A DNA stretch of 48,707 bases, from the IMG/VR virus record IMGVR_UViG_3300025628_000001. The stretch is one strand, 5' to 3'. Of the stretch, positions 5,679 through 48,707 are shown one piece after another. The stretch comes from a virus. Each line of letters opens with the position of its first letter. Position 1 is the first letter of the stretch. The translations under genes and the position numbers were made by a program. The notes beneath the pieces were generated by a model. The model worked only from the letters and a program-made list of their open reading frames with translations. It made no database searches and was not told where the DNA came from.

Positions 5679-5772
5679 ACAGCCCACAGCCTCACAGCTC
5701 ACCACCTCACAGCACAGCTCACAGCACAGGACCCGCACTGCCCACAGCCCACCACACCACATGACAGCCCAT
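5679..5772. repeat. C/A-rich pentamer-periodic tract (CACAG/CTCAC-type units; G-rich on the minus strand)
   Basis: The sequence reads cagcc cacag cctca cagct cacca cctca cagca cagct cacag cacag ... cagcc cacca cacca. GCTGTGAG occurs three times on the minus strand. Confidence 0.85.
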
Positions 5773-6291
5773 GTATTATAGGTGATATTGGTATTGTGTT
5801 ACTTACCAAGCGAACGCTTGGACATTATCGCAGCTCAACTAGTTATAAAGCCAAGATCTAACAGGTCCATAAGCAGATAACCAGAACGGCCTGACTACCC
5901 ACCACCTCCACCTATACACACGGGAGGCCAAAACACTCCAAATTTATAACCCCTAACCCCCTGATATACCTTCATAAAGGGCCAAGTTTATACGATTTAT
6001 AACTTGTGATTATAAATTTACCCTCTGTCTAACTACCTGTTATTACTTTATAAAACACCTCTTTTTATCAAGTTTATAATTTATAACCCGTTACCCCCAT
6101 ACAATAAAAAGTCTAAATCAACATAAATTCACAGAATAATTAACACAATAGTATTTAAAAAAAAAAAAAATATAATAATAAAATAACACTACACTACTCA
6201 AGCAAAATCAAGCACTTAGCAACATTTCAAGTTTATAATAAGTGCAATATGAAGAGCTATAAACTTATAAACTTCTCCCTGTACCACGAAT

Positions 6292-7201: not shown

Positions 7202-7360
7202 ATGACAGAATTAACAAAACAAAATATTTATGACTGGTTAGGCTCTGACAACACCGAAGCCCAAGCCGTTGAGATCATCCAAGATTTAGCCAATGGGAAT
7301 TATGATATTGAAGCCCTGAAAAGTGATATCTCAGGATATCAAGATAATTTGAAGCCATAA
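7202..7360 (+). CDS. Small acidic early protein (52 aa)
   Basis: A GGAGG-containing CTGGAGGCC lies 7 nt upstream. Hand translation MTELTKQNIYDWLGSDNTEAQAVEIIQDLANGNYDIEALKSDISGYQDNLKP. Confidence 0.55.
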   Translation: MTELTKQNIYDWLGSDNTEAQAVEIIQDLANGNYDIEALKSDISGYQDNLKP

Positions 7361-7429
7361 CCCATGATGATATTTGTCAAACTTGTGAGACTATCGCTAA
7401 AAAATTGAACTTAACTATCGGGGCAAAAC

Positions 7430-8857: not shown

Positions 8858-9064
8858 ATGAAAAAATTTAACACTATAAACACAAAAGAACAAAATAATA
8901 TAATTTATGACCTTTGTTTGTTACATGATAAGTTAAACGAAATTAAAAGGAGCGACAAGCTATTAACGCCAGCCGTTGAAAAGCTTATTATTGACATGCA
9001 GAATGAAATTAAAGATAGAATCCGCCTTGCAGCAAGATTAATAAAAGAACTTAACGCCAAATAA
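8858..9064 (+). CDS. Hypothetical early protein (68 aa)
   Basis: Track ORF with AGGAGC upstream. Confidence 0.65.
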   Translation: MKKFNTINTKEQNNIIYDLCLLHDKLNEIKRSDKLLTPAVEKLIIDMQNEIKDRIRLAARLIKELNAK

Positions 9065-9087
9065 ACAATTAACTCGGAGGCTTAAAA

Positions 9088-9180
9088 ATGAAAACCTGCA
9101 CCTTGTCAGAAGAGACACAAAAAGAGCTTTACGACGTATTAGTACAAATTGAAAAAATACGGAGAGTTGAACACATTTAA
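9088..9180 (+). CDS. Very small ORF (30 aa)
   Basis: GGAGG lies 8 nt upstream. Hand translation MKTCTLSEETQKELYDVLVQIEKIRRVEHI. Confidence 0.4.
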   Translation: MKTCTLSEETQKELYDVLVQIEKIRRVEHI

Positions 9181-9207
9181 CTATAAAATCATACGAGAGG
9201 ACAAGCC

Positions 9208-9505
9208 ATGGCCGATACAGCTAAAGTTATTTTAATCGAGGGAAACCCACATAATAAAATTCCCAGGTGGATCAATTGCAGTTTGCAGAACTTCAGACAA
9301 TGAGTATTGGGCGCATATCGAAGTAAATCACAAAGACGGGCCAAACGGTCAGATCCTTGAAGACGATCACCGGCAGAGCAAGAACGGGGAAGTCGTCACA
9401 AGCCGGGTTGATTACAACTATCCTCATACAGACATTCCGGCCATTCAGTACCATGAAAACATAAACCACATAGCCGTCCGGATCAAGACGAAAGGAGGCA
9501 AGTAG
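9208..9505 (+). pseudogene. Hypothetical protein of about 99 aa interrupted by a frame change at an A4 run (9256..9259)
   Basis: The frame from ATG 9208 stops at 9301. The +1 frame is open from 9260 to TAG 9505 with no ATG, GTG or TTG start. Removing one A joins them into ...EGNPHNKFPGGSIAVCRTSDNEYWAHIEVNH... Confidence 0.55.
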
Positions 9506-9506
9506 T

Positions 9507-10115
9507 ATGGACACGATAACCAGAAAATATAATCTTTACCAGTATCAGGAGCTTTCAGAACAGGCCAAACAGAAGGTGCAGCAGATGTTTGGCGAGGATC
9601 CGATTGATGAAACGAGCATGCTGACAGAAGACTTTAAAATGTTACTTGAACAGGATAACCCGTATTTTACAAACCCAGAATTTCAGTGGAGTTTGGGCCA
9701 TTGCCAGGGAGACGGATTGAGCTTTTCCTGTGATGTTGATGTTTTAGCGTTTGTAAAGGCAGAACTGGAAAGCATTAAAAAACCTAGTGTGCAGAATGTG
9801 ATTTCTAACTATTTAACAATCAGGTCAACGGGGAATAAAGGCCGATATTGTTACGCATCAAAGAACGATATTGATTTTGATTTTGAGACAGATGTCGGTG
9901 GGAACATAGAGCAGGTTTTTGATTCTGTAATTAAAGCCGTACAGGATAAGTATATGGATCTTTGTGCTAAATTCGAGAAAAGCGGTTATGAGCAATATGC
10001 TTACAGGTATTCCGACGAGAACGCACAGGAAATGTCTGAGGGGAATGATTACACTTACCTTGAAGACGGAACGATGTTTAACAAAGAGGAAGGAGATACA
10101 CCGAGCAATGGTTGA
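9507..10115 (+). CDS. Hypothetical early protein (202 aa)
   Basis: Track ORF with AAAGGAGG upstream. Confidence 0.75.
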   Translation: MDTITRKYNLYQYQELSEQAKQKVQQMFGEDPIDETSMLTEDFKMLLEQDNPYFTNPEFQWSLGHCQGDGLSFSCDVDVLAFVKAELESIKKPSVQNVISNYLTIRSTGNKGRYCYASKNDIDFDFETDVGGNIEQVFDSVIKAVQDKYMDLCAKFEKSGYEQYAYRYSDENAQEMSEGNDYTYLEDGTMFNKEEGDTPSNG

Positions 10116-10281
10116 ATATACAACAGTACCCATGGACGACGGGACGGACGATTTTATTTTGCAGTGTAACAACTGCGGAGCATTTAAACTGAATGCAGGA
10201 AGTGGATCCGAAATCGAACACCACAAGACCTGCAAACCTAACGACGATGACTGGACGGAAGGAGCAGGCGAGTCATGGTAA
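10108..10281 (+). CDS. Small Cys/His protein (57 aa), possible zinc ribbon
   Basis: The ATG at 10108 overlaps the stop of the previous ORF. Hand translation MVEYTTVPMDDGTDDFILQCNNCGAF...HHKTC. This is the internal Met of track ORF 9964..10281. Confidence 0.5.
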   Translation: MVEYTTVPMDDGTDDFILQCNNCGAFKLNAGSGSEIEHHKTCKPNDDDWTEGAGESW

Positions 10282-10331
10282 AGAAGTAAACAGAGACATT
10301 AACCCATAATTTTAAAAACGGAGACAGTATC

Positions 10332-10916
10332 ATGGCACAAAAAAAAGTAGTTAAATCACCAGCGATCAAAATCCAATTTATGAACCTTATTTTAGTGGGA
10401 GATTCCCCGTTGGTTTGTCATGCTTGGAGCGAAAAGGCAAAGAAAATAATGGCAGACGACCAGGACCCCGAAAAGGTCAAGCCTCCAAGAACAAAAAGAG
10501 ACAAAATAGCAGAATATCAGGCGAGCATGTATCATCTTCCGAACGGAAAACATGGTTTCCCGTCAATTGCTTTTAAATCTTCCGCCGTCCGAGCAGCAAA
10601 GAACGTGGAAGGGATGACCATGGCCGACACCAGAAACGCTTTTCATGTTCAGGGGGAACTGGTAGAGATAAAAGGAAAACCGGAAATGCGTGAGGATATG
10701 ATCCGCGTTAAAACTGGCGGAGCAGATTTGCGCTATCGTGGAGGTTTTAACGAATGGGAGGTTGAGATTACCGTCCGGTTTAATTCTTCAGTTATTAGCG
10801 CAGAAAAGATTGTGAACCTGTTTAATCTTGCAGGGTTTGGCGTAGGTGTTGGAGAATACAGACCAGAAAAAAACGGATCTTGGGGCTTATTTCATGTTAA
10901 AACGGAGAAGGAATAA
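10332..10916 (+). CDS. Hypothetical protein (194 aa) with a glycine-rich C-terminal loop
   Basis: Track ORF with ACGGAGAC upstream. It ends with AGFGVGVGEYRPEKNGSWGLFHV. An ATGA overlap couples it to the next ORF. Confidence 0.75.
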   Translation: MAQKKVVKSPAIKIQFMNLILVGDSPLVCHAWSEKAKKIMADDQDPEKVKPPRTKRDKIAEYQASMYHLPNGKHGFPSIAFKSSAVRAAKNVEGMTMADTRNAFHVQGELVEIKGKPEMREDMIRVKTGGADLRYRGGFNEWEVEITVRFNSSVISAEKIVNLFNLAGFGVGVGEYRPEKNGSWGLFHVKTEKE

Positions 10917-11362
10917 TGGAATATGACTGGAAATACGGCTCAAGAATCTCCGGTAATGCGAGTGTTGTTGGCGGTCAGATTGAATCTATACGTCAAAAAA
11001 AGGGCGGTTTTGTTGGTGCTAGAGACGTTTTGCAGAGTGCAAAGAGAAAAACATCTCCCCTGCACGAATATTTTGAATGGGACGATGGTTTGGCTGCTGA
11101 TGAATATCGGTTAGTTCAGGCAAGAGAATTGCTGCGAGCTATTGTTATTGTCAGGGAAGATGTTACTGTTCGAGGATTTGTAAACGTCCAAATTGAAGAC
11201 GATCTAACTTATACCAGTATTGACTTTGCTTTGTCAGATGCGGAGTTGAGGTTACAAGTTATAAATAAAGCAAAAAAAGAAATGATATCATGGCATCAAA
11301 GGTATAAAGATTTAGTAGAGTTTAATCCCATTCATGAAGCTATTGCGAGGTTTGCAGACTAG
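10916..11362 (+). CDS. Hypothetical protein (148 aa)
   Basis: Track ORF coupled to the preceding gene. It carries the motif PLHEYFEWDDGLAADEYRLVQARELLRAI. Its stop codon touches the G-rich tract. Confidence 0.7.
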   Translation: MEYDWKYGSRISGNASVVGGQIESIRQKKGGFVGARDVLQSAKRKTSPLHEYFEWDDGLAADEYRLVQARELLRAIVIVREDVTVRGFVNVQIEDDLTYTSIDFALSDAELRLQVINKAKKEMISWHQRYKDLVEFNPIHEAIARFAD

Positions 11363-11675
11363 GCAGGCGTGGACTGGCGGGGCGGGGCATGGTCAGGCCC
11401 GGCGCGGAATGGCTTGGCAGGCATGGCCAGGCGCGGTGAGGCAAGGCGAGGTGAGTGGGGCGAGGCATGGCAGGCGTGGTCAGGTCTGGTTTGGCATCGC
11501 TGGGCGAGGCGAGGTATGGCGGGGCAGGCTGGGCGCGGCAAGGTTCGGCGGGGAGAGGCAAGGCGTGGCAGGGCAGGGCAGGTTAGGCGTGGCGAGGCAG
11601 GGCAGGGCACGGCAGGCTAGGCGTGGCGAGGTTTGGCTTTGCAAGGTCAGGCATGGCAGGGCGAGGCAGGCAGGG
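11361..11675 (+). repeat. G-rich (GGYNN)n pentanucleotide-periodic tract, about 60 units
   Basis: GGC, or occasionally GGT, recurs every 5 nt (sometimes 4) with variable 2-nt spacers. The tract has very high GC in an otherwise AT-leaning genome and carries no stop codon in any of the six frames. Confidence 0.9.
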
Positions 11676-11701
11676 AAATCTATAACGAAAGGAGGAACAA
11701 A

Positions 11702-12403
11702 GTGACTAATGCAATTATTTACGCGAGGTTTTCTCCGCGCAGAAACGCTGAAACTTCAGACTCAAACGAGATCCAGAAGGCATATTGTGAACAGCATGCT
11801 CATGACAAAAAATACACTGTGGCCGGTTTTCATGAGGACAAGGCCCTTTCCGGATCCGACGCAGATCGTCCGGCTTTGTGGGCCGCCCTGGAGCAATTAG
11901 AAAAGGGCTCCGTCTTGCTGGTTTATAAGCTCGACAGACTGGCCAGAAACGTCTATCTGATGGAATTAATAAAGCAGGCAGTGAAAACCTGCGGCGCAAG
12001 GATTGAAGCCGTTGAGGGCGATGTTGAAGGCGATACGGCTGAATCTGTGCTGATTAGACAGATACTTTCTAGTATATCGGAGTATGAACGCAAGATCATA
12101 GCCTTAAGGACTAAATTTGCAATGCAGCAACATCAGCGAAACGGAAAGAGAATGGGTAGGTTTCCGCCTTATGGTTTCCAGATCGATCCGGAAGACAATA
12201 CCATGCTCATCCCGGTTGAACTAGAGCAAAAGGCAATCGTCCGGATCTGGGCGATGAAGGCCGAAGGATATGAGACTATGCAGATTGCCAGAAAGATGAA
12301 CCATGAGAAGTTGCATAAGACCCGGAACGGAAATCGCTGGGCCAGAAAACAAATTGATAAAATCTTAAGTAATCACAAACAAATAAAAGGAGACAGTAAA
12401 TGA
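11702..12403 (+). CDS. Small serine recombinase (resolvase/invertase family, about 233 aa)
   Basis: AIIYARFSPRRN contains the catalytic Ser context. Also present are DKALSGSDADRPAL, LLVYKLDRLARN and a C-terminal helix-turn-helix-like region. The likely start is GTG 11702, 7 nt after GGAGG. The upstream part of the track ORF is an artefact of the stop-free tract. Confidence 0.85.
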   Translation: MTNAIIYARFSPRRNAETSDSNEIQKAYCEQHAHDKKYTVAGFHEDKALSGSDADRPALWAALEQLEKGSVLLVYKLDRLARNVYLMELIKQAVKTCGARIEAVEGDVEGDTAESVLIRQILSSISEYERKIIALRTKFAMQQHQRNGKRMGRFPPYGFQIDPEDNTMLIPVELEQKAIVRIWAMKAEGYETMQIARKMNHEKLHKTRNGNRWARKQIDKILSNHKQIKGDSK

Positions 12404-12993
12404 ACAAGAATCCAATAGATAGTTCAGTAATTGCAAAAAGGCTAGCAACTGCGCTGGACAGAACTCAAAAGGATATTGAATCCTATTTTGACCGGGTTAA
12501 ACAGGGGGCAACTGATATTATCCGGGAGAATGTAGCCGACGCAATAAGGAGTAAAACCTTGACAGAAGATATCGCAAAGCATGTCGATAAAAATGTTTCT
12601 TTTGTTGTCGCTAAACACTTCAGGCAAAAGGACTTCAAAGGGGATCTTGACAGGAAAATTGAATCTATTGTTGGAGAAGAATTCAGCGCTTTTATTAATA
12701 AGTCTGTAAAGGAGGTTTTTGAGGACTATTTCCGTGAGAACATCAGGGTTATGATACAGGACTCAATAGAAAAACAAACAGACTATGTTATTGAGACGAC
12801 TAAAAAGATTGCCTTAACAACTTTTACTGACGCTATATCGACAAGAGTTAAAGAGCAGTTTAATGATGTGGCTTGTAAACATGTCATTACAAAAAAGATC
12901 GACGAGCTGATGGGAGCTCTTGGGAAAAGTCACGTTAAGCGGCTTTTAGAGACTGAGCTTGAGCACAGGGAAGGGGAAAGCGACAAGCATTAA
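12400..12993 (+). CDS. Hypothetical helical protein (197 aa)
   Basis: Track ORF with ATGA overlap with the recombinase stop. Confidence 0.65.
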   Translation: MNKNPIDSSVIAKRLATALDRTQKDIESYFDRVKQGATDIIRENVADAIRSKTLTEDIAKHVDKNVSFVVAKHFRQKDFKGDLDRKIESIVGEEFSAFINKSVKEVFEDYFRENIRVMIQDSIEKQTDYVIETTKKIALTTFTDAISTRVKEQFNDVACKHVITKKIDELMGALGKSHVKRLLETELEHREGESDKH

Positions 12994-14631: not shown

Positions 14632-16881
14632 CTATTCAGGTTCTTGTTTTGTTTCTTCCAATCCATACGGGTATGCCCAGACCATCAAGGCGCGTTTCCC
14701 CGGTTTTGTTCCGATTACAACATGTTTTTGTTCTTGTAAATCAGCTAAATGGTCGTCGCGTTGACGTTTGCTGTGTTTCGGGGTTTTTTGTGCAAGTACA
14801 CTTTTCGGGATCCCTTTTGCTCCGGCCTTTTTAATATGGCTAAATATTCTCAGTTTGTCTTTTTCGTAAACACTTTCTACGACATGGTTCTCTACCATAT
14901 TCACAGTTCTGGTCAGGAGTGCATTTGCCAGTTGACACGCCCAATCAGCGTGCATATCTGAGATCTCGGGATTGTCGAATCTATCCCCTGCAGCGACATT
15001 AAGCGCAAGCCGGCGAGCGTTCTCCCCGGACTTTAACCATAATTTATCAACACCTTTATTCTGGTTCTGTCTGGCCATTCGGTCTGACGCTAGTTCAAAA
15101 TCCATAAAGCATTCATGGGCCTGCGCGTTTGTAGGGATTACTGCCGGGAATATGCCCGTTGCCGCGTCGATGTCCGGAGTTCCTGCAGGGGCCATAATTG
15201 ATCTTGTCCACCATGCCTGCAGCTGAGTGACCAGATGCTCTGGAACAGGTTTTGTTTCGTGTTCTTTCCATCTTTTAGCTGGATTTGTGTTTGATATAAA
15301 TATCAACACACGACCCAGCCATCCGTCCTCGATCTCTGCAGGACTGATACCCTCGCAAAGCTTTTCAGGTGTCGTCGTACCATATAGGCAGCAACATGGT
15401 TGAACGATAACCTTGCGCTCCTGTTTTGCATATTCTTTGCCATAATATGTCGATTTCGCACATGAATAAAGTTTCATTAATATCGGGACAATAGATGCTA
15501 AATGTGGATTAACTCCGCCAGAAGCCTTGATGCTACCCATCATGTGGCCAATTTCATCCATGGGGAAATATATCGAAGGAGATTCTGTCAGGCGTGATTC
15601 GATCGCTGCATCTCCAGTGACACTTTCTCCGCCCAAAATTGCGTGAATCCCTGCGGTTTCTATCAGTCTTTTAATCTGATCTCTGGCGTGCTCCTTCCCT
15701 GCGCTGGAAGGAGCGACACCCATTGCGTACAGGTTTGTCCGATTGTTCCATTGATCTCTGACCTTCTGTCCGAATAGTGCTCCACAGAAAGGCAGGACAG
15801 CCCCAAGAGTGAGTAAAGGTTGATCTTTTAAAGCAGTTGCGTTGATCCATGCACAAATGTCTCCAATTAAGCCTGGCGGTTTCAATAACCATTCAGGGAA
15901 TGCTTCTTCAGGTTTTATCTCGGAAACTGATTCAATTCTGGGTTCGTTTTTTACTTCTTTTTTCACACTGGCCAATAATCCAGCTGCCAGTTTTCCGCCA
16001 TAGTCCATGAGTTCCTCATCGTCTGGCCTTAACCCGTATTCTTCTAATAACCAGCCTGCAGGTTTCTTCCCGGGCGTTTTCTTAGCTTCATGTACTTTTC
16101 TCTCGAAGTCTTTCCGTTCCTTTTGTGGATCCCATGGCGGATTGCACATGGGATTGTATACGCTCCATAACAGCTGGATTGCCGTACCCTCATCGAGTTC
16201 AAAACCAACTACCAAAGAGCGAGCGGCCCATAATAGAGCCTCATGGCCGTCCTGTCCCTGATTTGCCGGCGCACATTTCTTCAGGTACAGTTTCGCTCTG
16301 TCAATAATGTCTGTTTTGGGAAGATTTACTTTGTTTATTATTTCCCTGGGCTTTTCCCATGGTAATGCCGGTGCTTCTTTTTCTGGCTTCAGATGTTCCG
16401 GATATTCTGCCAGCTCGACATCATCAGGGCCATGTTTCGGCATCCATTGATACTTCTTCCCGTTTGGATGCGTGGACGGGGTTAGAATAATATAATAGCC
16501 GTCACCCCGGATATCGATTCCGTTCCGGAAGTTGTTTCTATTTGCAGGAGGATCGTCTGATTTAAACAGATAATGCGCTCCGCCTCTCGGTGTGATCTGA
16601 ACGGCTGTTTTTGGCATGGTTTCGGAGAATTCTTCGAGAGATTCAAACCCGTCCTCACCTTTCTCTGGGTCATAGTCGATATCGACGGTATAAACTCCGG
16701 AAGCTTCACCACAGGCAAGTCCGATATTTGCCTCTGGCCATCTTTGCCACCAGGCGCGAATGGTTTTTTCGTCGGTCGTTGCGTCTCTGCAGCCATGTTT
16801 TGTCAGCGGTGTTTTGACTTTAGCTCCACATGGGAAGATGTGCCAGCCTCTTTGCGAGTAGTTCAGTGCGTGATTAATCAT
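14632..16881 (-). CDS. Bifunctional primase-polymerase (prim-pol) fused to a DUF3987-like P-loop helicase domain
   Basis: The N-terminus carries GWHIFPC, VYTVDIDYD (DxD) and PRGGAHYLF, which are prim-pol motifs. The central region carries GVAPSSAGKEHA (Walker A) and YFPMDEIGH (Walker B). Confidence 0.85.
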   Translation of the reverse strand: MINHALNYSQRGWHIFPCGAKVKTPLTKHGCRDATTDEKTIRAWWQRWPEANIGLACGEASGVYTVDIDYDPEKGEDGFESLEEFSETMPKTAVQITPRGGAHYLFKSDDPPANRNNFRNGIDIRGDGYYIILTPSTHPNGKKYQWMPKHGPDDVELAEYPEHLKPEKEAPALPWEKPREIINKVNLPKTDIIDRAKLYLKKCAPANQGQDGHEALLWAARSLVVGFELDEGTAIQLLWSVYNPMCNPPWDPQKERKDFERKVHEAKKTPGKKPAGWLLEEYGLRPDDEELMDYGGKLAAGLLASVKKEVKNEPRIESVSEIKPEEAFPEWLLKPPGLIGDICAWINATALKDQPLLTLGAVLPFCGALFGQKVRDQWNNRTNLYAMGVAPSSAGKEHARDQIKRLIETAGIHAILGGESVTGDAAIESRLTESPSIYFPMDEIGHMMGSIKASGGVNPHLASIVPILMKLYSCAKSTYYGKEYAKQERKVIVQPCCCLYGTTTPEKLCEGISPAEIEDGWLGRVLIFISNTNPAKRWKEHETKPVPEHLVTQLQAWWTRSIMAPAGTPDIDAATGIFPAVIPTNAQAHECFMDFELASDRMARQNQNKGVDKLWLKSGENARRLALNVAAGDRFDNPEISDMHADWACQLANALLTRTVNMVENHVVESVYEKDKLRIFSHIKKAGAKGIPKSVLAQKTPKHSKRQRDDHLADLQEQKHVVIGTKPGKRALMVWAYPYGLEETKQEPE

Positions 16882-22663: not shown

Positions 22664-24466
22664 TTATTTAACTACCTTAGTCAATGCTTTCATAAATTCA
22701 TTCCAGTCAAGAGGCAGTTCATATGGCAATCGGCCATAAGGGCCACGACCACCACCCGGATGAGCTGGTCTTTTCTGGGTGAACAGAAATCGGGATCCAC
22801 CAGTTACGTCAATACCGCGTTTCTTTTCCTGTCCAAACCCTTTGTCTTCTTTCTGCACCTTAACTTTAGTGTTGCAAAACAGAATTACATCTGCCCAACG
22901 AAAAAGCATATTTACGGCTTTCTCGTTAATGTCAAGAATGTACTGATCGTAGCTGTCACCGGATGGATCGTCAAAGCGTTTAACCTTAACATGTCCGATA
23001 ATAATACTGGACATCCCTTTGTGGCTTCTCAGGGCGTCCAACCCTTCTGTGAGCTGTCTCCAATAGTTCACTGATTCGGTGTATCCTTTGCCATACCCAC
23101 CGCCAACGGCCTCAATATTCTTTACGTTTGCAGCGTCGCAAACAGCGTTCCAGACAAGAGGCTCCATCGCGCTTGCGCTGTCTAAAACTACGGTTCTGTG
23201 CTCATGTTCTTCGGAGTAAAGGGATCCAAGTGCTTCGATAATATCTTCAAATTTATTGCAAACTGGAAACTTTGGGATTTCCAAGTCGTCTGCTCCCTCT
23301 TCACCTTTCATCGATAATAGGATAGGAGCGTTCAAGCCGGTCTTGAATATTTTATTGTCCTTAAATTGCGTTCCGCAGGAAAAGGTCGTGTTGTGTGTTA
23401 CGACCAAATCTCGTCCCGCTAGATAGGTGTGAGAGGGTGAATCGACGGATATACATTTAACAGGGACGGACTTTACAGGTGTAACGGAGACGATAGCATC
23501 TTTATTGGCTTTCCTTCTGGAGTTTTTTGTTTTAAAGCAGTTAAACTTAAACTTTGAAAACCTAAAAGGATTTTCTTTCGGGAAAAATGCTACACGAAAA
23601 TTGGGCCCACAATCTTTGCCATTAAGTTTTGCACGACATCTTGTAATAGATGCTTTGACCCCGAGAGATCGAAGCAGTTCGATAAATCCGTCACAGAGAC
23701 ACTCTTTGACCGTTGAGAATTCACACTGGCCTTTGTTGTTGTCGTAGCAACATCCGTCAGTATCCATGAGCCCAGCCAGCAAGCTTCTCCTGTCTTCTTC
23801 GGTACTTTCCCAAACTGAAGCATGGGGGATGTGCTTATTGCCTAGCAGGTTTCTGTTTCTTAGTTTTACTTTAAGACCTAAGATCGTAGAAGTCTTGCAG
23901 CCAGCAGTTTGGTATGGTTTACCAGTTGATCCCAAATTATTTCCAATTAGAGCGTCCCTGTCTGATATTGTTACTCGACCATCGCTAGAACTTCCATCTC
24001 CGAGCCAAACTCCCAAAACATATGGGTCAATGCCTATTACTGAAGTCTTCTTTATCTTGAGCGGGAGCGTGATTGGGACTGCATGATTGTAACGATCTCC
24101 GTTGGGAGGTCTAAGGGTCTTAAGGATTTGGCCTGTAGTCAACACTCGTTCTTTATTGTCCCGTATCGACCTTGTGAGCCATTGATGCTCTTTATCGGCT
24201 ATCAATGAGGCCCCGCTCTTAAACTTCACTTCATAGCAGGTTCGTTTTTCCATGATACCCGTCACATCGGTAACGCGTACCATGCTGCCGTCTCTATCAA
24301 AGACATAATCCCCTCTTTTAATAAATTTCAGTGGTTGCCATCCCCTGTTTGTAAAAATTGGGGTATTGTAGTCGAGAGCCTTCCCGATCTTTTCAACACC
24401 TAGAACCAGGATCCTTGGTGCTCTTAAAATTGTTTCTTTTTTAATACTGTTAAGGTCAAACGTCAT
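22664..24466 (-). CDS. Sak4-like RecA-fold (AAA_24) recombination ATPase interrupted by an intein (270-aa extein plus 330-aa intein)
   Basis: The Walker A is split as LVLGVEKIGK | intein | TTFSCG. The C-extein carries VVLDSASAMEP (Walker B-like) and SIIIGHVK. Confidence 0.8.
   Translation of the reverse strand: MTFDLNSIKKETILRAPRILVLGVEKIGKALDYNTPIFTNRGWQPLKFIKRGDYVFDRDGSMVRVTDVTGIMEKRTCYEVKFKSGASLIADKEHQWLTRSIRDNKERVLTTGQILKTLRPPNGDRYNHAVPITLPLKIKKTSVIGIDPYVLGVWLGDGSSSDGRVTISDRDALIGNNLGSTGKPYQTAGCKTSTILGLKVKLRNRNLLGNKHIPHASVWESTEEDRRSLLAGLMDTDGCCYDNNKGQCEFSTVKECLCDGFIELLRSLGVKASITRCRAKLNGKDCGPNFRVAFFPKENPFRFSKFKFNCFKTKNSRRKANKDAIVSVTPVKSVPVKCISVDSPSHTYLAGRDLVVTHNTTFSCGTQFKDNKIFKTGLNAPILLSMKGEEGADDLEIPKFPVCNKFEDIIEALGSLYSEEHEHRTVVLDSASAMEPLVWNAVCDAANVKNIEAVGGGYGKGYTESVNYWRQLTEGLDALRSHKGMSSIIIGHVKVKRFDDPSGDSYDQYILDINEKAVNMLFRWADVILFCNTKVKVQKEDKGFGQEKKRGIDVTGGSRFLFTQKRPAHPGGGRGPYGRLPYELPLDWNEFMKALTKVVK
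23390..24379 (-). mobile_element. Intein with a LAGLIDADG homing-endonuclease domain; class-3-type signature
   Basis: It starts ALDYNTPIFTNRG (Ala1, block A). Block B is GASLIADKEHQWLT. The two LAGLIDADG motifs are LGVWLGDGSSSDG and LLAGLMDTDGCC. Block F is VKCISVDSPSHTYLA. It ends VVTHN followed by Thr+1. Confidence 0.8.
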
Positions 24467-44045: not shown

Positions 44046-44221
44046 TATTTCTTCACCTTCTTTTTTCTACCAGAAGCTTCTCTGTCGATGCCCTTGGCCC
44101 TCCTAATTAAGAGCTCAGCCATTCGGGACCGTTTCTTTTCTTTCTTGTATTTCGGGAGTTCCATCCGTTTCTTTTCTTTCTTGTATTTCGGGAGTTCCAT
44201 CCGTTTTATTTTTTCTGACAT
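44045..44221 (-). CDS. Small basic protein (58 aa) containing a 12-aa tandem duplication
   Basis: GGAGGA lies 7 nt upstream. Hand translation MSEKIKRMELPKYKKEKKRMELPKYKKEKKRSRMAELLIRRAKGIDREASGRKKKVKK. Confidence 0.55.
   Translation of the reverse strand: MSEKIKRMELPKYKKEKKRMELPKYKKEKKRSRMAELLIRRAKGIDREASGRKKKVKK
44129..44200. repeat. Perfect 36-bp tandem duplication (2 copies plus 6 bp of a third)
   Basis: ccgtttcttttctttcttgtatttcgggagttccat occurs twice head to tail. Confidence 0.9.
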
Positions 44222-46369: not shown

Positions 46370-48707
46370 TTAATAAGTTTCTATAGCTACGCTCTTCCAA
46401 GCACCAGACGCAGTACAAACATACATAAAACCTGAACCCCAGGCAATTTCCCCGGCAGTGCAAGCATCAGCAGCCGCTGGAGTTTGAGCCGTTGCTATCA
46501 CGATAGAATCCCCAGCAGCAGTAAGAACGCCATCTACGTTCATGTCAGTGTCAAACGTGACATCATCTTCGAAAGTAAACGTATCTGCTGAAACAAGTCC
46601 AGTCCCGTCGGAATAAAGCCTTTGCCCTCGATCATGGCAATATGTAACTATCTTGCCATATGTCATGTCGGGATCGTCACCTCCAGTTGCCCAAACATAT
46701 AACTTATCTTCGGCCGCATCATAAGAAAACGTGCCTTCTGACATGGCGGCCCAATTCACAGCATCAGAAGAACCATCAACCCAAACATATTCGATAAGAA
46801 GAATGTTGTCCTGCCTTACCTTGTATTGGTCCCATGTAACCCCTCCAGCAGTCCAGTCTGACACGTATATTTCACCAGACGCTGCAAGCCAACCAGTAAC
46901 AGTCTCCGTAGTAATATCAGACCCCAGCCACATTCCGTCACCGGAAGTTATACCGGCCAGCGTAAGTTGGATATTCTTGCCATATGTAACCGTCGCGCCG
47001 TATGTAACGCCAGCCAAAGCCGGAGAATCTATAAACACACCATAATCGTCGCCGTAATGTTTACCGCCATCTGGCGCGCTTATAAAGCTATTGCCTGCTC
47101 GAAAAGAGAAGCTGTCGCCGTAGACCTTAACCATAGTGGAAACGGAGCTCGTCTTCAAACCATAAAAATCTTGCCCAGATAAATGACTCCCAGTCCCGAT
47201 CCCGCCGGTCACTACCGCCCCAAAATAGTCAACGTGCTCATTACCGCCATGCCCTAATCCCCCCCAAGGAACCAACAAGGAGGTATTACTAAACTTTAAA
47301 CCTATGAAGCTCGCACCTTTACCGTAATGATCCCCACCCACCACATTATATCCAAACACGCTATACACATTCGACGCGAACCTTGGATCTGAAGAATTGT
47401 TGTCATCATTCCCATCGTCATAAGGATCAACAGAATTAAGGATATTAAGAACCATGGTATTCGAGTTTTCAGTAGTAGGGTTGGCTATATTATCAAAGTC
47501 AATCCGCTTCCAGCCATACGCCGTAGGATTCATAGAAATAGAATTAACATTTAACGAGTCAAACGTTACCTCGGCTCCTTCATCGACTTCCTGATCCATA
47601 CCTCCAACATAACCCCATTGTGCAGCGTCTATTGTGGTGGCCCCAATTAGTTCAAGCTGGTTTACCTCGGCAGCCGACAAAGCACTTAATCCTATTGTTG
47701 TGTACAAATTATCATGCTCGCTTTTAATTGTATTAAGTTCGGTGCCAGTAACGGTCGTGTCAAGAGAAGAAAGCGCATCCCCTGGCTGGGTTGCGGTATC
47801 AGCATCAGCAAGGCTTGTCCCTATAGCAGCAACCAAATCTCCAACATCGATACTGTTCGCATCTATCGTGGCACTAATCGCTTGACCCGTAACAACAATA
47901 TCTATGTCCCCGGCAGTTGTCCCGGTCGCAGCTACATGATCGTTATCTACCGAAAGCAAGCCCTCACCAATACCCCCGTCAGTGTAAGTCAACCCCGTTC
48001 CCGCCATACTTCCAACAAAGTCCTCCACCTCCTCTTCTGTAAGGTTTGTGTCTGTAGCCTTTAACGAGTTAGCTACAATCTCATCCCATTTGCCTGCACC
48101 CAAAAGCCCAGCGGAATCTGTATTTGCCTCTGGAAGTATAATGTCATTTGCACTACCGTCTGAGGTGATTCCATATGTAGTTGCGCTTACTGTCCCAGCT
48201 TCGAGGGTAGTAGGTACGTTTGTTACTTTTGCCGTATTGGTTACTATCGCAGAAGCCTGCCCAGAAGTAATTCCTGTCTTTGCTGTATTGGTTACTATCG
48301 CCGAAGTTTGCCCAGAAGTTATTGTTGTCGGCTTATTTAATATTAAAGCATCCCCAGTAGTGGCATCCCAGTTAGATTGAACATTTTGTTCTTGAGTAGT
48401 AACACCGACTTTAGCCGTGTTAGTTACTATCGCAGAAGCCTGCCCAGAAGTAATTCCTGTCTTTGCTGTATTGGCTGTGATTGCAGAAGCCTGTCCTGAA
48501 GTTATTGTTGTCGGCTTATTTAATATTAACGCATCGCCAGCAGTTTCGTTCCAGTCCGATTGAACGTTCTGCTCTTCGGTAGTAACGCCGACTTTAGCCG
48601 TGTTAGTTACTATCGCAGAAGCCTGCCCAGAAGTAATTCCTGTCTTTGCTGTATTGGCTGTGATTGCAGAAGCCTGTCCTGAAGTTATTGTTGTCGGCTT
48701 ATTTAAT
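46370..48707 (-). CDS. Tail fibre / receptor-binding protein, C-terminal part of the wrap-around gene
   Basis: The frame of track ORF 46370..48103 stays open upstream to the window end. The track 'start' is only the first TTG in frame. The region contains 61-aa tandem repeats and a fibre-type C-terminus (CTAGEIAWGSGFMYVCTASGAWKSVAIETY). Confidence 0.75.
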   Translation of the reverse strand, partial: LNKPTTITSGQASAITANTAKTGITSGQASAIVTNTAKVGVTTEEQNVQSDWNETAGDALILNKPTTITSGQASAITANTAKTGITSGQASAIVTNTAKVGVTTQEQNVQSNWDATTGDALILNKPTTITSGQTSAIVTNTAKTGITSGQASAIVTNTAKVTNVPTTLEAGTVSATTYGITSDGSANDIILPEANTDSAGLLGAGKWDEIVANSLKATDTNLTEEEVEDFVGSMAGTGLTYTDGGIGEGLLSVDNDHVAATGTTAGDIDIVVTGQAISATIDANSIDVGDLVAAIGTSLADADTATQPGDALSSLDTTVTGTELNTIKSEHDNLYTTIGLSALSAAEVNQLELIGATTIDAAQWGYVGGMDQEVDEGAEVTFDSLNVNSISMNPTAYGWKRIDFDNIANPTTENSNTMVLNILNSVDPYDDGNDDNNSSDPRFASNVYSVFGYNVVGGDHYGKGASFIGLKFSNTSLLVPWGGLGHGGNEHVDYFGAVVTGGIGTGSHLSGQDFYGLKTSSVSTMVKVYGDSFSFRAGNSFISAPDGGKHYGDDYGVFIDSPALAGVTYGATVTYGKNIQLTLAGITSGDGMWLGSDITTETVTGWLAASGEIYVSDWTAGGVTWDQYKVRQDNILLIEYVWVDGSSDAVNWAAMSEGTFSYDAAEDKLYVWATGGDDPDMTYGKIVTYCHDRGQRLYSDGTGLVSADTFTFEDDVTFDTDMNVDGVLTAAGDSIVIATAQTPAAADACTAGEIAWGSGFMYVCTASGAWKSVAIETY
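48225..48707. repeat. 183-bp in-frame tandem repeat array: copy A 48225..48407 (diverged), copy B 48408..48590, copy C 48591..48651 continuing at 1..122, plus a partial fourth copy near 123..150
   Basis: Copies B and C are identical base for base. Each unit contains two 51-bp sub-repeats encoding TSGQASAI(T/V)(A/T)NTAK. Confidence 0.9.
48652..48707. repeat. 56-bp terminal overlap with positions 1..56 (circular-assembly signature)
   Basis: Exact identity of the two window ends, with the reading frame preserved across the junction. Confidence 0.9.

Follow-up and report, generated by a model that had tools for sequence, protein, structure and literature searches.

A stretch of viral DNA (IMG/VR virus record IMGVR_UViG_3300025628_000001; 48,707 nucleotides, hereafter the window) contains a G-rich tract in which the triplet GGY recurs about every 5 nt and is followed each time by two variable nucleotides (NN). 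This GGYNN tract (11361-11675, + strand) lies immediately 3' of the TAG stop codon of an open reading frame (ORF 10916-11362). What is the tract for? It is very likely the guide-RNA array of a VIPR (Viral Interference Programmable Repeat) system, with six predicted guides for a putative Vipr protein that is encoded just 5' of it. Elements of this kind were already published in April 2026; the locus in the window is a further case of VIPR and not a new kind of element.

VIPR was first posted in two preprints (bioRxiv 10.64898/2026.04.26.720920, also PMC13142463, and bioRxiv 10.64898/2026.04.26.720927). According to the former, a VIPR system consists of a RAMP protein of about 20 kDa (Vipr), an accessory gene (vap), and vrRNAs made up of 9-16 YNNGG repeats (10.64898/2026.04.26.720920). 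Vipr is a minimal RAMP, with an RRM core, a G-loop, and a thumb. One Vipr protomer binds each pentamer, with GGY sequestered and NN exposed; in the protein from phage SUSP1, the first G is contacted by H17 and D177, the second G by R138 and W178, and the pyrimidine by R179 (10.64898/2026.04.26.720927). The exposed NN pairs with double-stranded DNA, with one target base skipped per unit, and the complex represses the transcription of competing phages, satellites, and prophages (10.64898/2026.04.26.720927 and 10.64898/2026.04.26.720920). The first preprint also includes "staggered vrRNA arrays," in which adjacent vrRNAs overlap by 1 nt (fig. S18 of 10.64898/2026.04.26.720920).

We begin with the tract itself. 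It has 58 GGY triplets; counting the degenerate units as well, there are 61 units. Successive GGY triplets are 5 nt apart in 44 of 57 cases and 4 nt apart in another 7; the other 6 spacings, of 9-10 nt, each bridge one degenerate unit. Position 1 is G in 59 of the 61 units, position 2 is G in all 61, and position 3 is C or T in 58 (entropies of 0.24, 0, and 0.95 bits). The entropies at positions 4 and 5 are 1.83 and 1.89 bits, and 15 different NN dinucleotides occur. The plus strand of the tract is 52% G and 20% C, and its G+C content is 72%, versus 44% for the window. Four-unit runs of GGYNN occur 23 times in the window, all of them within the tract, where 0.05 would be expected (from dinucleotide-preserving shuffles). 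The region from 10332 to 12403, which includes the tract and its flanking genes, is base-for-base the same in three independent assemblies (Logan, JGI, and ENA), so the tract is not an assembly artifact.

Much of this was anticipated by the original prediction for this DNA, which had placed the tract directly past the stop codon of ORF 10916-11362, counted about 60 units with GGC or GGT every 5 nt, and described it as a strong GC island. It had also pointed out a serine recombinase gene 27 nt downstream on the same strand, and this gene is indeed there (GTG start at 11702, with the ribosome-binding site AGGAGG). Its view that the tract is neither a slippage microsatellite nor coding was right, and the assembly artifact that it wanted checked is now excluded. 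But its statement that none of the six frames has a stop codon was wrong: only one frame is open throughout (that of ORF 11334-11705), and each of the others has 1-3 stops. It also missed a higher-order period of 11 units.

This higher-order period comes from 4-nt units. There are seven of these and every one is GGCA; the first begins with the G of the stop codon (TAG) of ORF 10916-11362, and they are spaced at intervals of 54, 53, 54, 54, 34, and 54 nt. At each of them, the register of the pentamers shifts by -1, that is, every 11 units (one time after 7). These GGCA/G junctions (where the slash marks the shift; at 11362, 11416, 11469, 11523, 11577, 11611, and 11665) are 1-nt overlaps of adjacent guides. 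In other words, this is a staggered array (11362-11669, + strand), which the junctions cut into six guides. A constant GGCAG unit closes every guide, and its final G is the opening G of the next one.

All six guides are on the plus strand. vrRNA1 (11366-11420) has 11 units, with the NN code GT CT GG GG AT CA CC GC AT TT, followed by the constant AG that also ends the other codes. vrRNA2 (11420-11473) has 11 units and the code AT CA GC GA AA GA GA GG GA AT (+AG); one of its units is shortened to GTGG, which we took as GGTGG minus its first G. Three more guides of 11 units each contain one degenerate unit: vrRNA3 (11473-11527; degenerate unit CGCTG; code GT CA CT TT AT TG GA GA AT GG, +AG), vrRNA4 (11527-11581; GGAGA; code TG GC AA TC GG GA AA GT AG AG, +AG), and vrRNA6 (11615-11669; TGCAA; code TA GT GA TT TT AA CA AT AG GA, +AG). 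Between the last two lies the short vrRNA5 (11581-11615), with 7 units and the code TA GT GA AG AG AC (+AG). The predicted guides in this array thus have 7-11 units, as compared to the 9-16 repeats per guide that have been published.

Which protein would bind these guides? The original prediction had named the product of ORF 10332-10916 (+ strand) among three candidates, and by sequence comparison and structural modeling this 194-amino-acid protein is a Vipr homolog, that is, a RAMP (Cas7-like) protein which we predict polymerizes on GGYNN RNA. A search with phmmer matched it to the "SUSP1 Vipr protein" in the Protein Data Bank (PDB 36pp_D) with E = 0.002, and a profile of 27 homologs gave E = 5e-8. 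When this profile was compared (with hhalign) to the SUSP1-type Vipr of phage Andreotti, the probability was 96.8%. The AlphaFold2 model (mean predicted local distance difference test score, or pLDDT, of 86.7) matches the Csm3, Cas7, Cas7-11, and type VII Cas7 chains (Foldseek E = 5e-6 to 1e-4). The SUSP1 residues that contact GGY (H17, R138, D177, W178, and R179) align to H30, R136, E175, Y176, and R177 of the window's protein. Four of these (H30, R136, E175, and R177) are invariant among the 27 Vipr homologs, and position 176 is tryptophan in the consensus of the clade. Pfam has no family for this protein or for the product of the next gene, and PHROGs has unnamed families only.

The next gene (10916-11362, + strand; phrog_15946) has a start codon that overlaps the vipr stop codon, and it encodes a vap-like accessory protein of 148 amino acids, which we call protein B. 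The array begins at its stop codon, 446 nt past vipr, and both genes and the array are on one strand. Protein B has no sequence match in Pfam or the PDB. Its AlphaFold2 model (pLDDT of 89) has weak matches to winged-helix-like folds (E > 0.3).

Given the order and strand of these genes, we expect that the array is transcribed rightward together with vipr and the accessory gene. A scan of 9000-12600 for promoters and terminators found no site between the vap-like gene and the array (nor any promoter-like site on the plus strand), so the array is probably part of the vipr-vap transcript. By analogy to the work on SUSP1 and P. fulva, Vipr protomers would coat this transcript, one per pentamer, burying GGY and presenting NN. 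The NN dinucleotides would pair with double-stranded DNA as NNx NNx, with one target base skipped per unit, and the protein-held R-loop triplex that forms would block transcription. We infer that, in a cell that is co-infected or lysogenic, the system would silence replication genes belonging to competing phages or mobile elements.

The original prediction had proposed looking in related contigs, and there we did find periodic tracts, both in 27 Cluster F mycobacteriophages and at 120 or more loci in IMG/VR. The mycobacteriophages (genus Cheoctovirus) emerged from a sensitive blastn search of the region against GenBank phages, in which the tract alone matched. They have the same GGCNN run, including GGCA slips, and the trio of vipr, the B gene, and the array is present. 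In Donkeykong, the run is annotated as a hypothetical gene (gp48; L001 2950-3336); in Brocalys, its place is blank. The run is 387 nt long in Donkeykong and 274 nt long in Brocalys, and the Donkeykong frame is shifted and stopped in Brocalys. Because the lengths differ by 113 nt and the frame is stopped, we conclude that the run is non-coding. (When we treated the positional neighbors of the mycobacteriophage loci as candidate homologs of the window's genes, BLASTP found nothing. The gene order differs, and the true homologs, gp49 and gp50, lie 3' of the array.) A megablast search with 24 kb of the window as the query found no match among GenBank phages, and in the literature on pentanucleotide repeats in mycobacteriophages we found a survey of simple sequence repeats only.

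In IMG/VR, the tract adjoins the gene at 5 of 8 loci with distant relatives of ORF 10916-11362. We also scanned IMG/VR at the DNA level, blind to proteins, for seven consecutive GGYNN units, and found at least 120 loci. Among the matches listed, which is the scope of all the counts for related arrays here and below, 59 arrays have at least 30 units; these are 150-1250 nt long and lie in contigs of 44-70% G+C. We compared the ORFs that flank the 59 arrays by iterated searches with hidden Markov models. A vipr homolog adjoins 46 of the 59 arrays and a B homolog adjoins 28, and the G-rich strand is always the one involved. The gene orders are vipr-B-array (as in the window), vipr-array-B, and array-vipr-B (as in the mycobacteriophages with gp49 and gp50). 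No cluster of recombinases turned up among the flanking genes, and the association with the serine recombinase in the window is incidental.

The junctions recur as well. At the related loci, GGCA serves as the junction unit for 144 of the 157 slips, and 74% of the distances between slips are 4 mod 5 (34, 44, 49, and 59 nt are common). The mode of the inter-slip length across the 59 arrays is 11 units, and most are 9-15 units. Protein B is enriched at the arrays with GGCA slips (15/17 versus 9/21, P = 0.006 by Fisher's exact test).

We also noticed Vipr proteins of the window's clade in other records: besides the 27 of Cluster F mycobacteriophages, there are 5 Gordonia phage records, cyanophage Cy-LDV1, and Pseudomonas phage LESphi2. 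The phage itself is recurrent in metagenomes: in the assembly collection, 82 indexed blocks contain its Vipr sequence. The metagenomes in which it occurs include JGI 3300023251, SRR5458845, and ERZ27315834. Some arrays are punctuated in other ways. L013 (3081-3639, reverse strand) has blocks of 13-16 pentamers, with a conserved 59-nt spacer between them that contains a hairpin (GGCGGCTAAAAACCGCC). L014 (5813-6150) has 14-nt units of GGTGAGGACTTTAG, L038 (1986-2351) has 9-nt units of GGCGTTCAR, and both L033 and L064 have units of GGCGGTCAN. These five probably represent different VIPR types whose tails are short.

What would the guides target? We converted the guides to patterns using only the rule that one base is skipped per unit, and we dropped the constant last unit, so a 10-unit guide becomes a gapped pattern of 20 bases. 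Five of the six guides were scanned against the sequence collections. (vrRNA5, with 7 units, is too short.) vrRNA1 has three exact matches in the viral contigs of IMG/VR. All three are in phase with codons, the wobble base being the one skipped, and all three fall on the motif VLGGIQPAI[FL] of replication proteins with Prim-Pol and DUF3987 domains. The wobble bases vary among these matches. A control pattern, with the order reversed and the composition matched, had no matches in the viral contigs.

vrRNA2, if its GTGG unit is read as NN = GG, has 11 exact matches in viral contigs. Ten of these are in phase with codons and fall on the motif IQAEND[DE]GD[MI] of AAA_25 helicases that have a DnaB-N or DnaG zinc-ribbon domain, from at least five diverged homologs. 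The remaining match is in an ORF-poor location, and we treat it as chance-level. Another phage contig with VIPR, L024, has an in-phase near-match to vrRNA2 (17 of 19 positions, or 18 of 20; 7359-7387, reverse strand). By eye, the gene there resembles the same AAA_25-type helicase, which fits with the published report of VIPR phages targeting one another, but on its own this near-match is not significant.

Overall, 13 of the 14 viral matches of vrRNA1 and vrRNA2 are in phase and place the skipped base third in the codon, where wobble occurs. By our own estimate, about 0.2 matches per pattern are expected by chance, and the background does appear to be low, because three other guide patterns and one control gave no matches in the same collection. 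It is unlikely that the matches of vrRNA1 and vrRNA2 are due to chance. The original prediction had described the spacers as free; instead, they appear to be a gapped guide code for DNA targets.

We treat the matches outside of viral contigs as chance-level. In the metagenome contigs, vrRNA3 has one match, in an ORF-poor contig of 1.1 kb, which is at the chance level. In GTDB, vrRNA1 matches exactly at three orthologous sites, one in each of three Stenotrophomonas species (L137 2531-2559, L138 6698-6726, and L139 7560-7588), which span the start codon of a QueF-like gene together with its 5' leader (queF, as we named it by eye from its sequence). This is probably a coincidence, because about one match is expected in GTDB and because these genomes have a G+C content of 65-70%.

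The window has no self-target. The best match of a guide within the 48.7-kb window covers 16 of 22 NN positions (73%), or 15 of 20 with the 10-unit cores, which is below 80%. The phage has its own Prim-Pol/DUF3987 gene (14632-16881, - strand), with the same architecture as the targets of vrRNA1 and without the VLGGIQP motif. By eye, the likeliest counterpart of the motif in this gene is CLYGTTTPEKL, which vrRNA1 does not match. Comparing the contigs with vrRNA1 targets to the window by tblastx found no similarity. When we searched the contigs matched by vrRNA1 or vrRNA2 for the other guides, none exceeded 80% except for single borderline matches. The matched contigs are best seen as homologs of real, unsampled rivals and not as phages that demonstrably share a host.

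Several observations count against a VIPR array with these targets. The pattern for vrRNA2 hinges on how one shortened unit is read, and that reading was prompted by the near-match in L024, before the scan that confirmed it. Three guides (vrRNA3, vrRNA4, and vrRNA6) have no exact matches in the viral contigs of IMG/VR. The target contigs have a G+C content of 30-40% or 53-61%, versus 44% for the window. The likeness between the window's Vipr and that of SUSP1 is limited to the C-terminal third, where about 65 residues align, and the accessory protein differs from the characterized one: by sequence comparison, protein B is not detectably homologous to the SUSP1-type vap1. Finally, in the first preprint, small-RNA sequencing is reported for type II systems, arrays with ribozymes, and single-guide systems, and not for staggered arrays (10.64898/2026.04.26.720920).

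We also considered whether the tract might act in some other way. It could be a structural element without a guide role: a G-quadruplex, or an R-loop that persists, might prime replication or control the downstream recombinase. A plus strand that is just over half G, with GG every 5 nt, might suggest this, and the RNA of the array is predicted to fold slightly better than shuffled sequences do (z = -2.6). But the predicted fold has only isolated and scattered pairs, with no discrete structure (and Rfam, at its gathering thresholds, has no family anywhere in the window). A structural role would also leave too much unexplained for us to consider it anything but very improbable: the pyrimidine at the third base, the exact -1 slips at GGCA every 9-15 units, the RAMP gene at 46 of 59 tracts, and the NN bases that spell in-phase codons of foreign replication genes. 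Nor is the recombinase conserved beside related tracts. The other strand suggests an antisense Rho-loading (rut) site: a C-rich transcript from the minus strand would load Rho, which would keep leftward transcription from running on into the early genes. Over its 315 nt, the minus strand has 52% C and 20% G, as is typical of rut sites; yet there is no promoter-like site just 3' of the array from which to read across it (the nearest on the minus strand is at 12122-12095, and none is closer), and a rut site has no need of phased GGY, junction units, or linked vipr and vap genes. The same arrays are found in hosts of 44-70% G+C and in three gene orders, and a side effect on Rho would not be the selected function. 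We consider a rut site to be even less probable than a structural element. These ideas, along with a recombination or priming site, were put forward in the original prediction, and we found nothing in support of them.

Could the tract instead encode a protein? ORF 11334-11705 (123 amino acids, rich in Gly, Arg, and Ala, and of low complexity) runs open through the entire tract, and its TGA stop overlaps the GTG of the recombinase as GTGA. The ORF over the array is annotated as a coding sequence in Donkeykong (gp48) and in the JGI assembly of the phage itself, where the array is called as a protein gene (L132 4003-4374). However, an open frame is expected because GGYNN repeats are intrinsically poor in stop codons. 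No ribosome-binding site precedes the ATG at 11334, the ORF does not belong to a Pfam or PHROG family, and codon phase is kept neither by the 5-nt period and -1 slips nor by the common inter-slip lengths. As described above, Brocalys has the equivalent ORF out of frame and interrupted by a stop. A coding role is about as improbable as a rut site. These annotations illustrate that vrRNA arrays get misannotated as protein genes. Several other candidates did not predict the linked RAMP gene and were dropped: a loading site for a ring of single-strand annealing protein (SSAP) or Rad52 type, a recognition array for primase, a Chi-like array, a pac site for the small terminase, and a decoy for restriction or modification.

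Having weighed these alternatives, we return to the VIPR array and compare it to known systems. An experimentally characterized relative is the type II VIPR of Escherichia phage SUSP1 and other Felixounavirus (PDB 36pp). As in the window, vipr (195 amino acids), vap (146 amino acids), and the array occur in that order, and a G-loop and thumb residues read GGY. The code of the SUSP1-type system, with one nucleotide skipped, fits the window's guides. But in phage Andreotti (L141) the guides of this type, which mainly use GGT, are separate units; each is preceded by an AT-rich leader of its own and ends in a 3' tail that is conserved and structured. In the window, there are no leaders or tails, GGC predominates, and the guides abut with 1-nt overlaps. 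In this respect the window resembles the staggered VIPR of the preprint (fig. S18 of 10.64898/2026.04.26.720920), whose diagram shares with the window a RAMP gene, a small accessory gene, unbroken GGY/NN pentamers, and 1-nt overlaps. Those systems are also phage-encoded, with both genes and the array on one strand.

More distantly, VIPR resembles the backbone of class 1 CRISPR-Cas systems, in which Cas7 or Csm3 assembles on CRISPR RNA: both have the RAMP fold, one protomer per fixed length of guide, and thumbs that break the duplex. In class 1 CRISPR-Cas the period is 6 nt, of which five are read, while in VIPR the period is 5 nt, of which three are buried and two are read. Unlike CRISPR-Cas, the window's system is phage-encoded and has no repeat-spacer units, cas1/cas2, Cas6-type repeat hairpin, or nuclease. 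Tandem Repeats Finder (TRF) found no CRISPR-type direct repeats (23-50 nt) in the window, and we saw no cas genes among the annotated ORFs around the array or among the window's large ORFs.

Another system that reads a triplet every few nucleotides is TRAP from Bacillus, which is a closed ring of 11 subunits with a fold unrelated to that of Vipr. It binds 11 (G/U)AG triplets in the trp leader, the spacers between them are uninformative, and the result is attenuation in cis. By analogy, both systems would use an oligomeric protein that recognizes, on single-stranded RNA, a triplet repeated at 5-nt intervals, in units of 11 triplets. The window's system would differ in that the triplet is GGY instead of (G/U)AG, the protein has a RAMP fold and forms an open helical filament, the spacers serve as the guide, and DNA is targeted in trans. 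The original prediction had suggested a TRAP-like landing pad. Its view of the binding mode seems to have been right (one Vipr per pentamer, which contacts a triplet plus a spacer), but it missed the role of the spacers. It also knew of no described phage element with such an architecture, which the preprints of April 2026 have made outdated.

If staggered arrays are a distinct form of VIPR, how would their guides be made? The GGCA/G junction may act as a ruler: the -1 shift would stop the Vipr filament after about 11 protomers and expose a point for cleavage. The family of protein B may help to set the ends of the guides or to pass the guide to DNA. A broader proposal is that staggered arrays have their own route for making guides and that these guides are aimed at invariant motifs of replication proteins. 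We offer this combination tentatively and view it as doubtful, albeit less so than the alternatives for the tract itself. If it is true, then a single guide against the VLGGIQP or IQAENDxGD motif could silence whole families of competitors and not just one rival.

VIPR was discovered only months ago. It is a form of RNA-guided DNA binding with a gapped code, and it has been proposed to be older than CRISPR. The window's locus is a clean and compact example of a staggered array, a form that has had no experimental characterization so far. In the first preprint, staggered VIPR appears as a locus diagram only (10.64898/2026.04.26.720920). To this the window and its relatives add the boundaries of the guides, the GGCA/G junction motif, the typical guide length (a mode of 11 units), a linked accessory family, and two predicted target motifs. 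Also, a plain scan for the GGYNN pattern finds VIPR loci without any protein search.

The window has a few other features. Near its end is a 183-bp tandem repeat (48225-48707; 2.6 copies with 90% identity) that reaches the last nucleotide of the window. There is also a perfect 36-bp tandem duplication (44129-44206; 2.2 copies) and an imperfect 7-nt repeat of ACAGCCC (5679-5773). Finally, an AAA_24 ATPase (22664-24466, - strand) is broken by Hom_end/LAGLIDADG domains, and this insertion is probably an intein.

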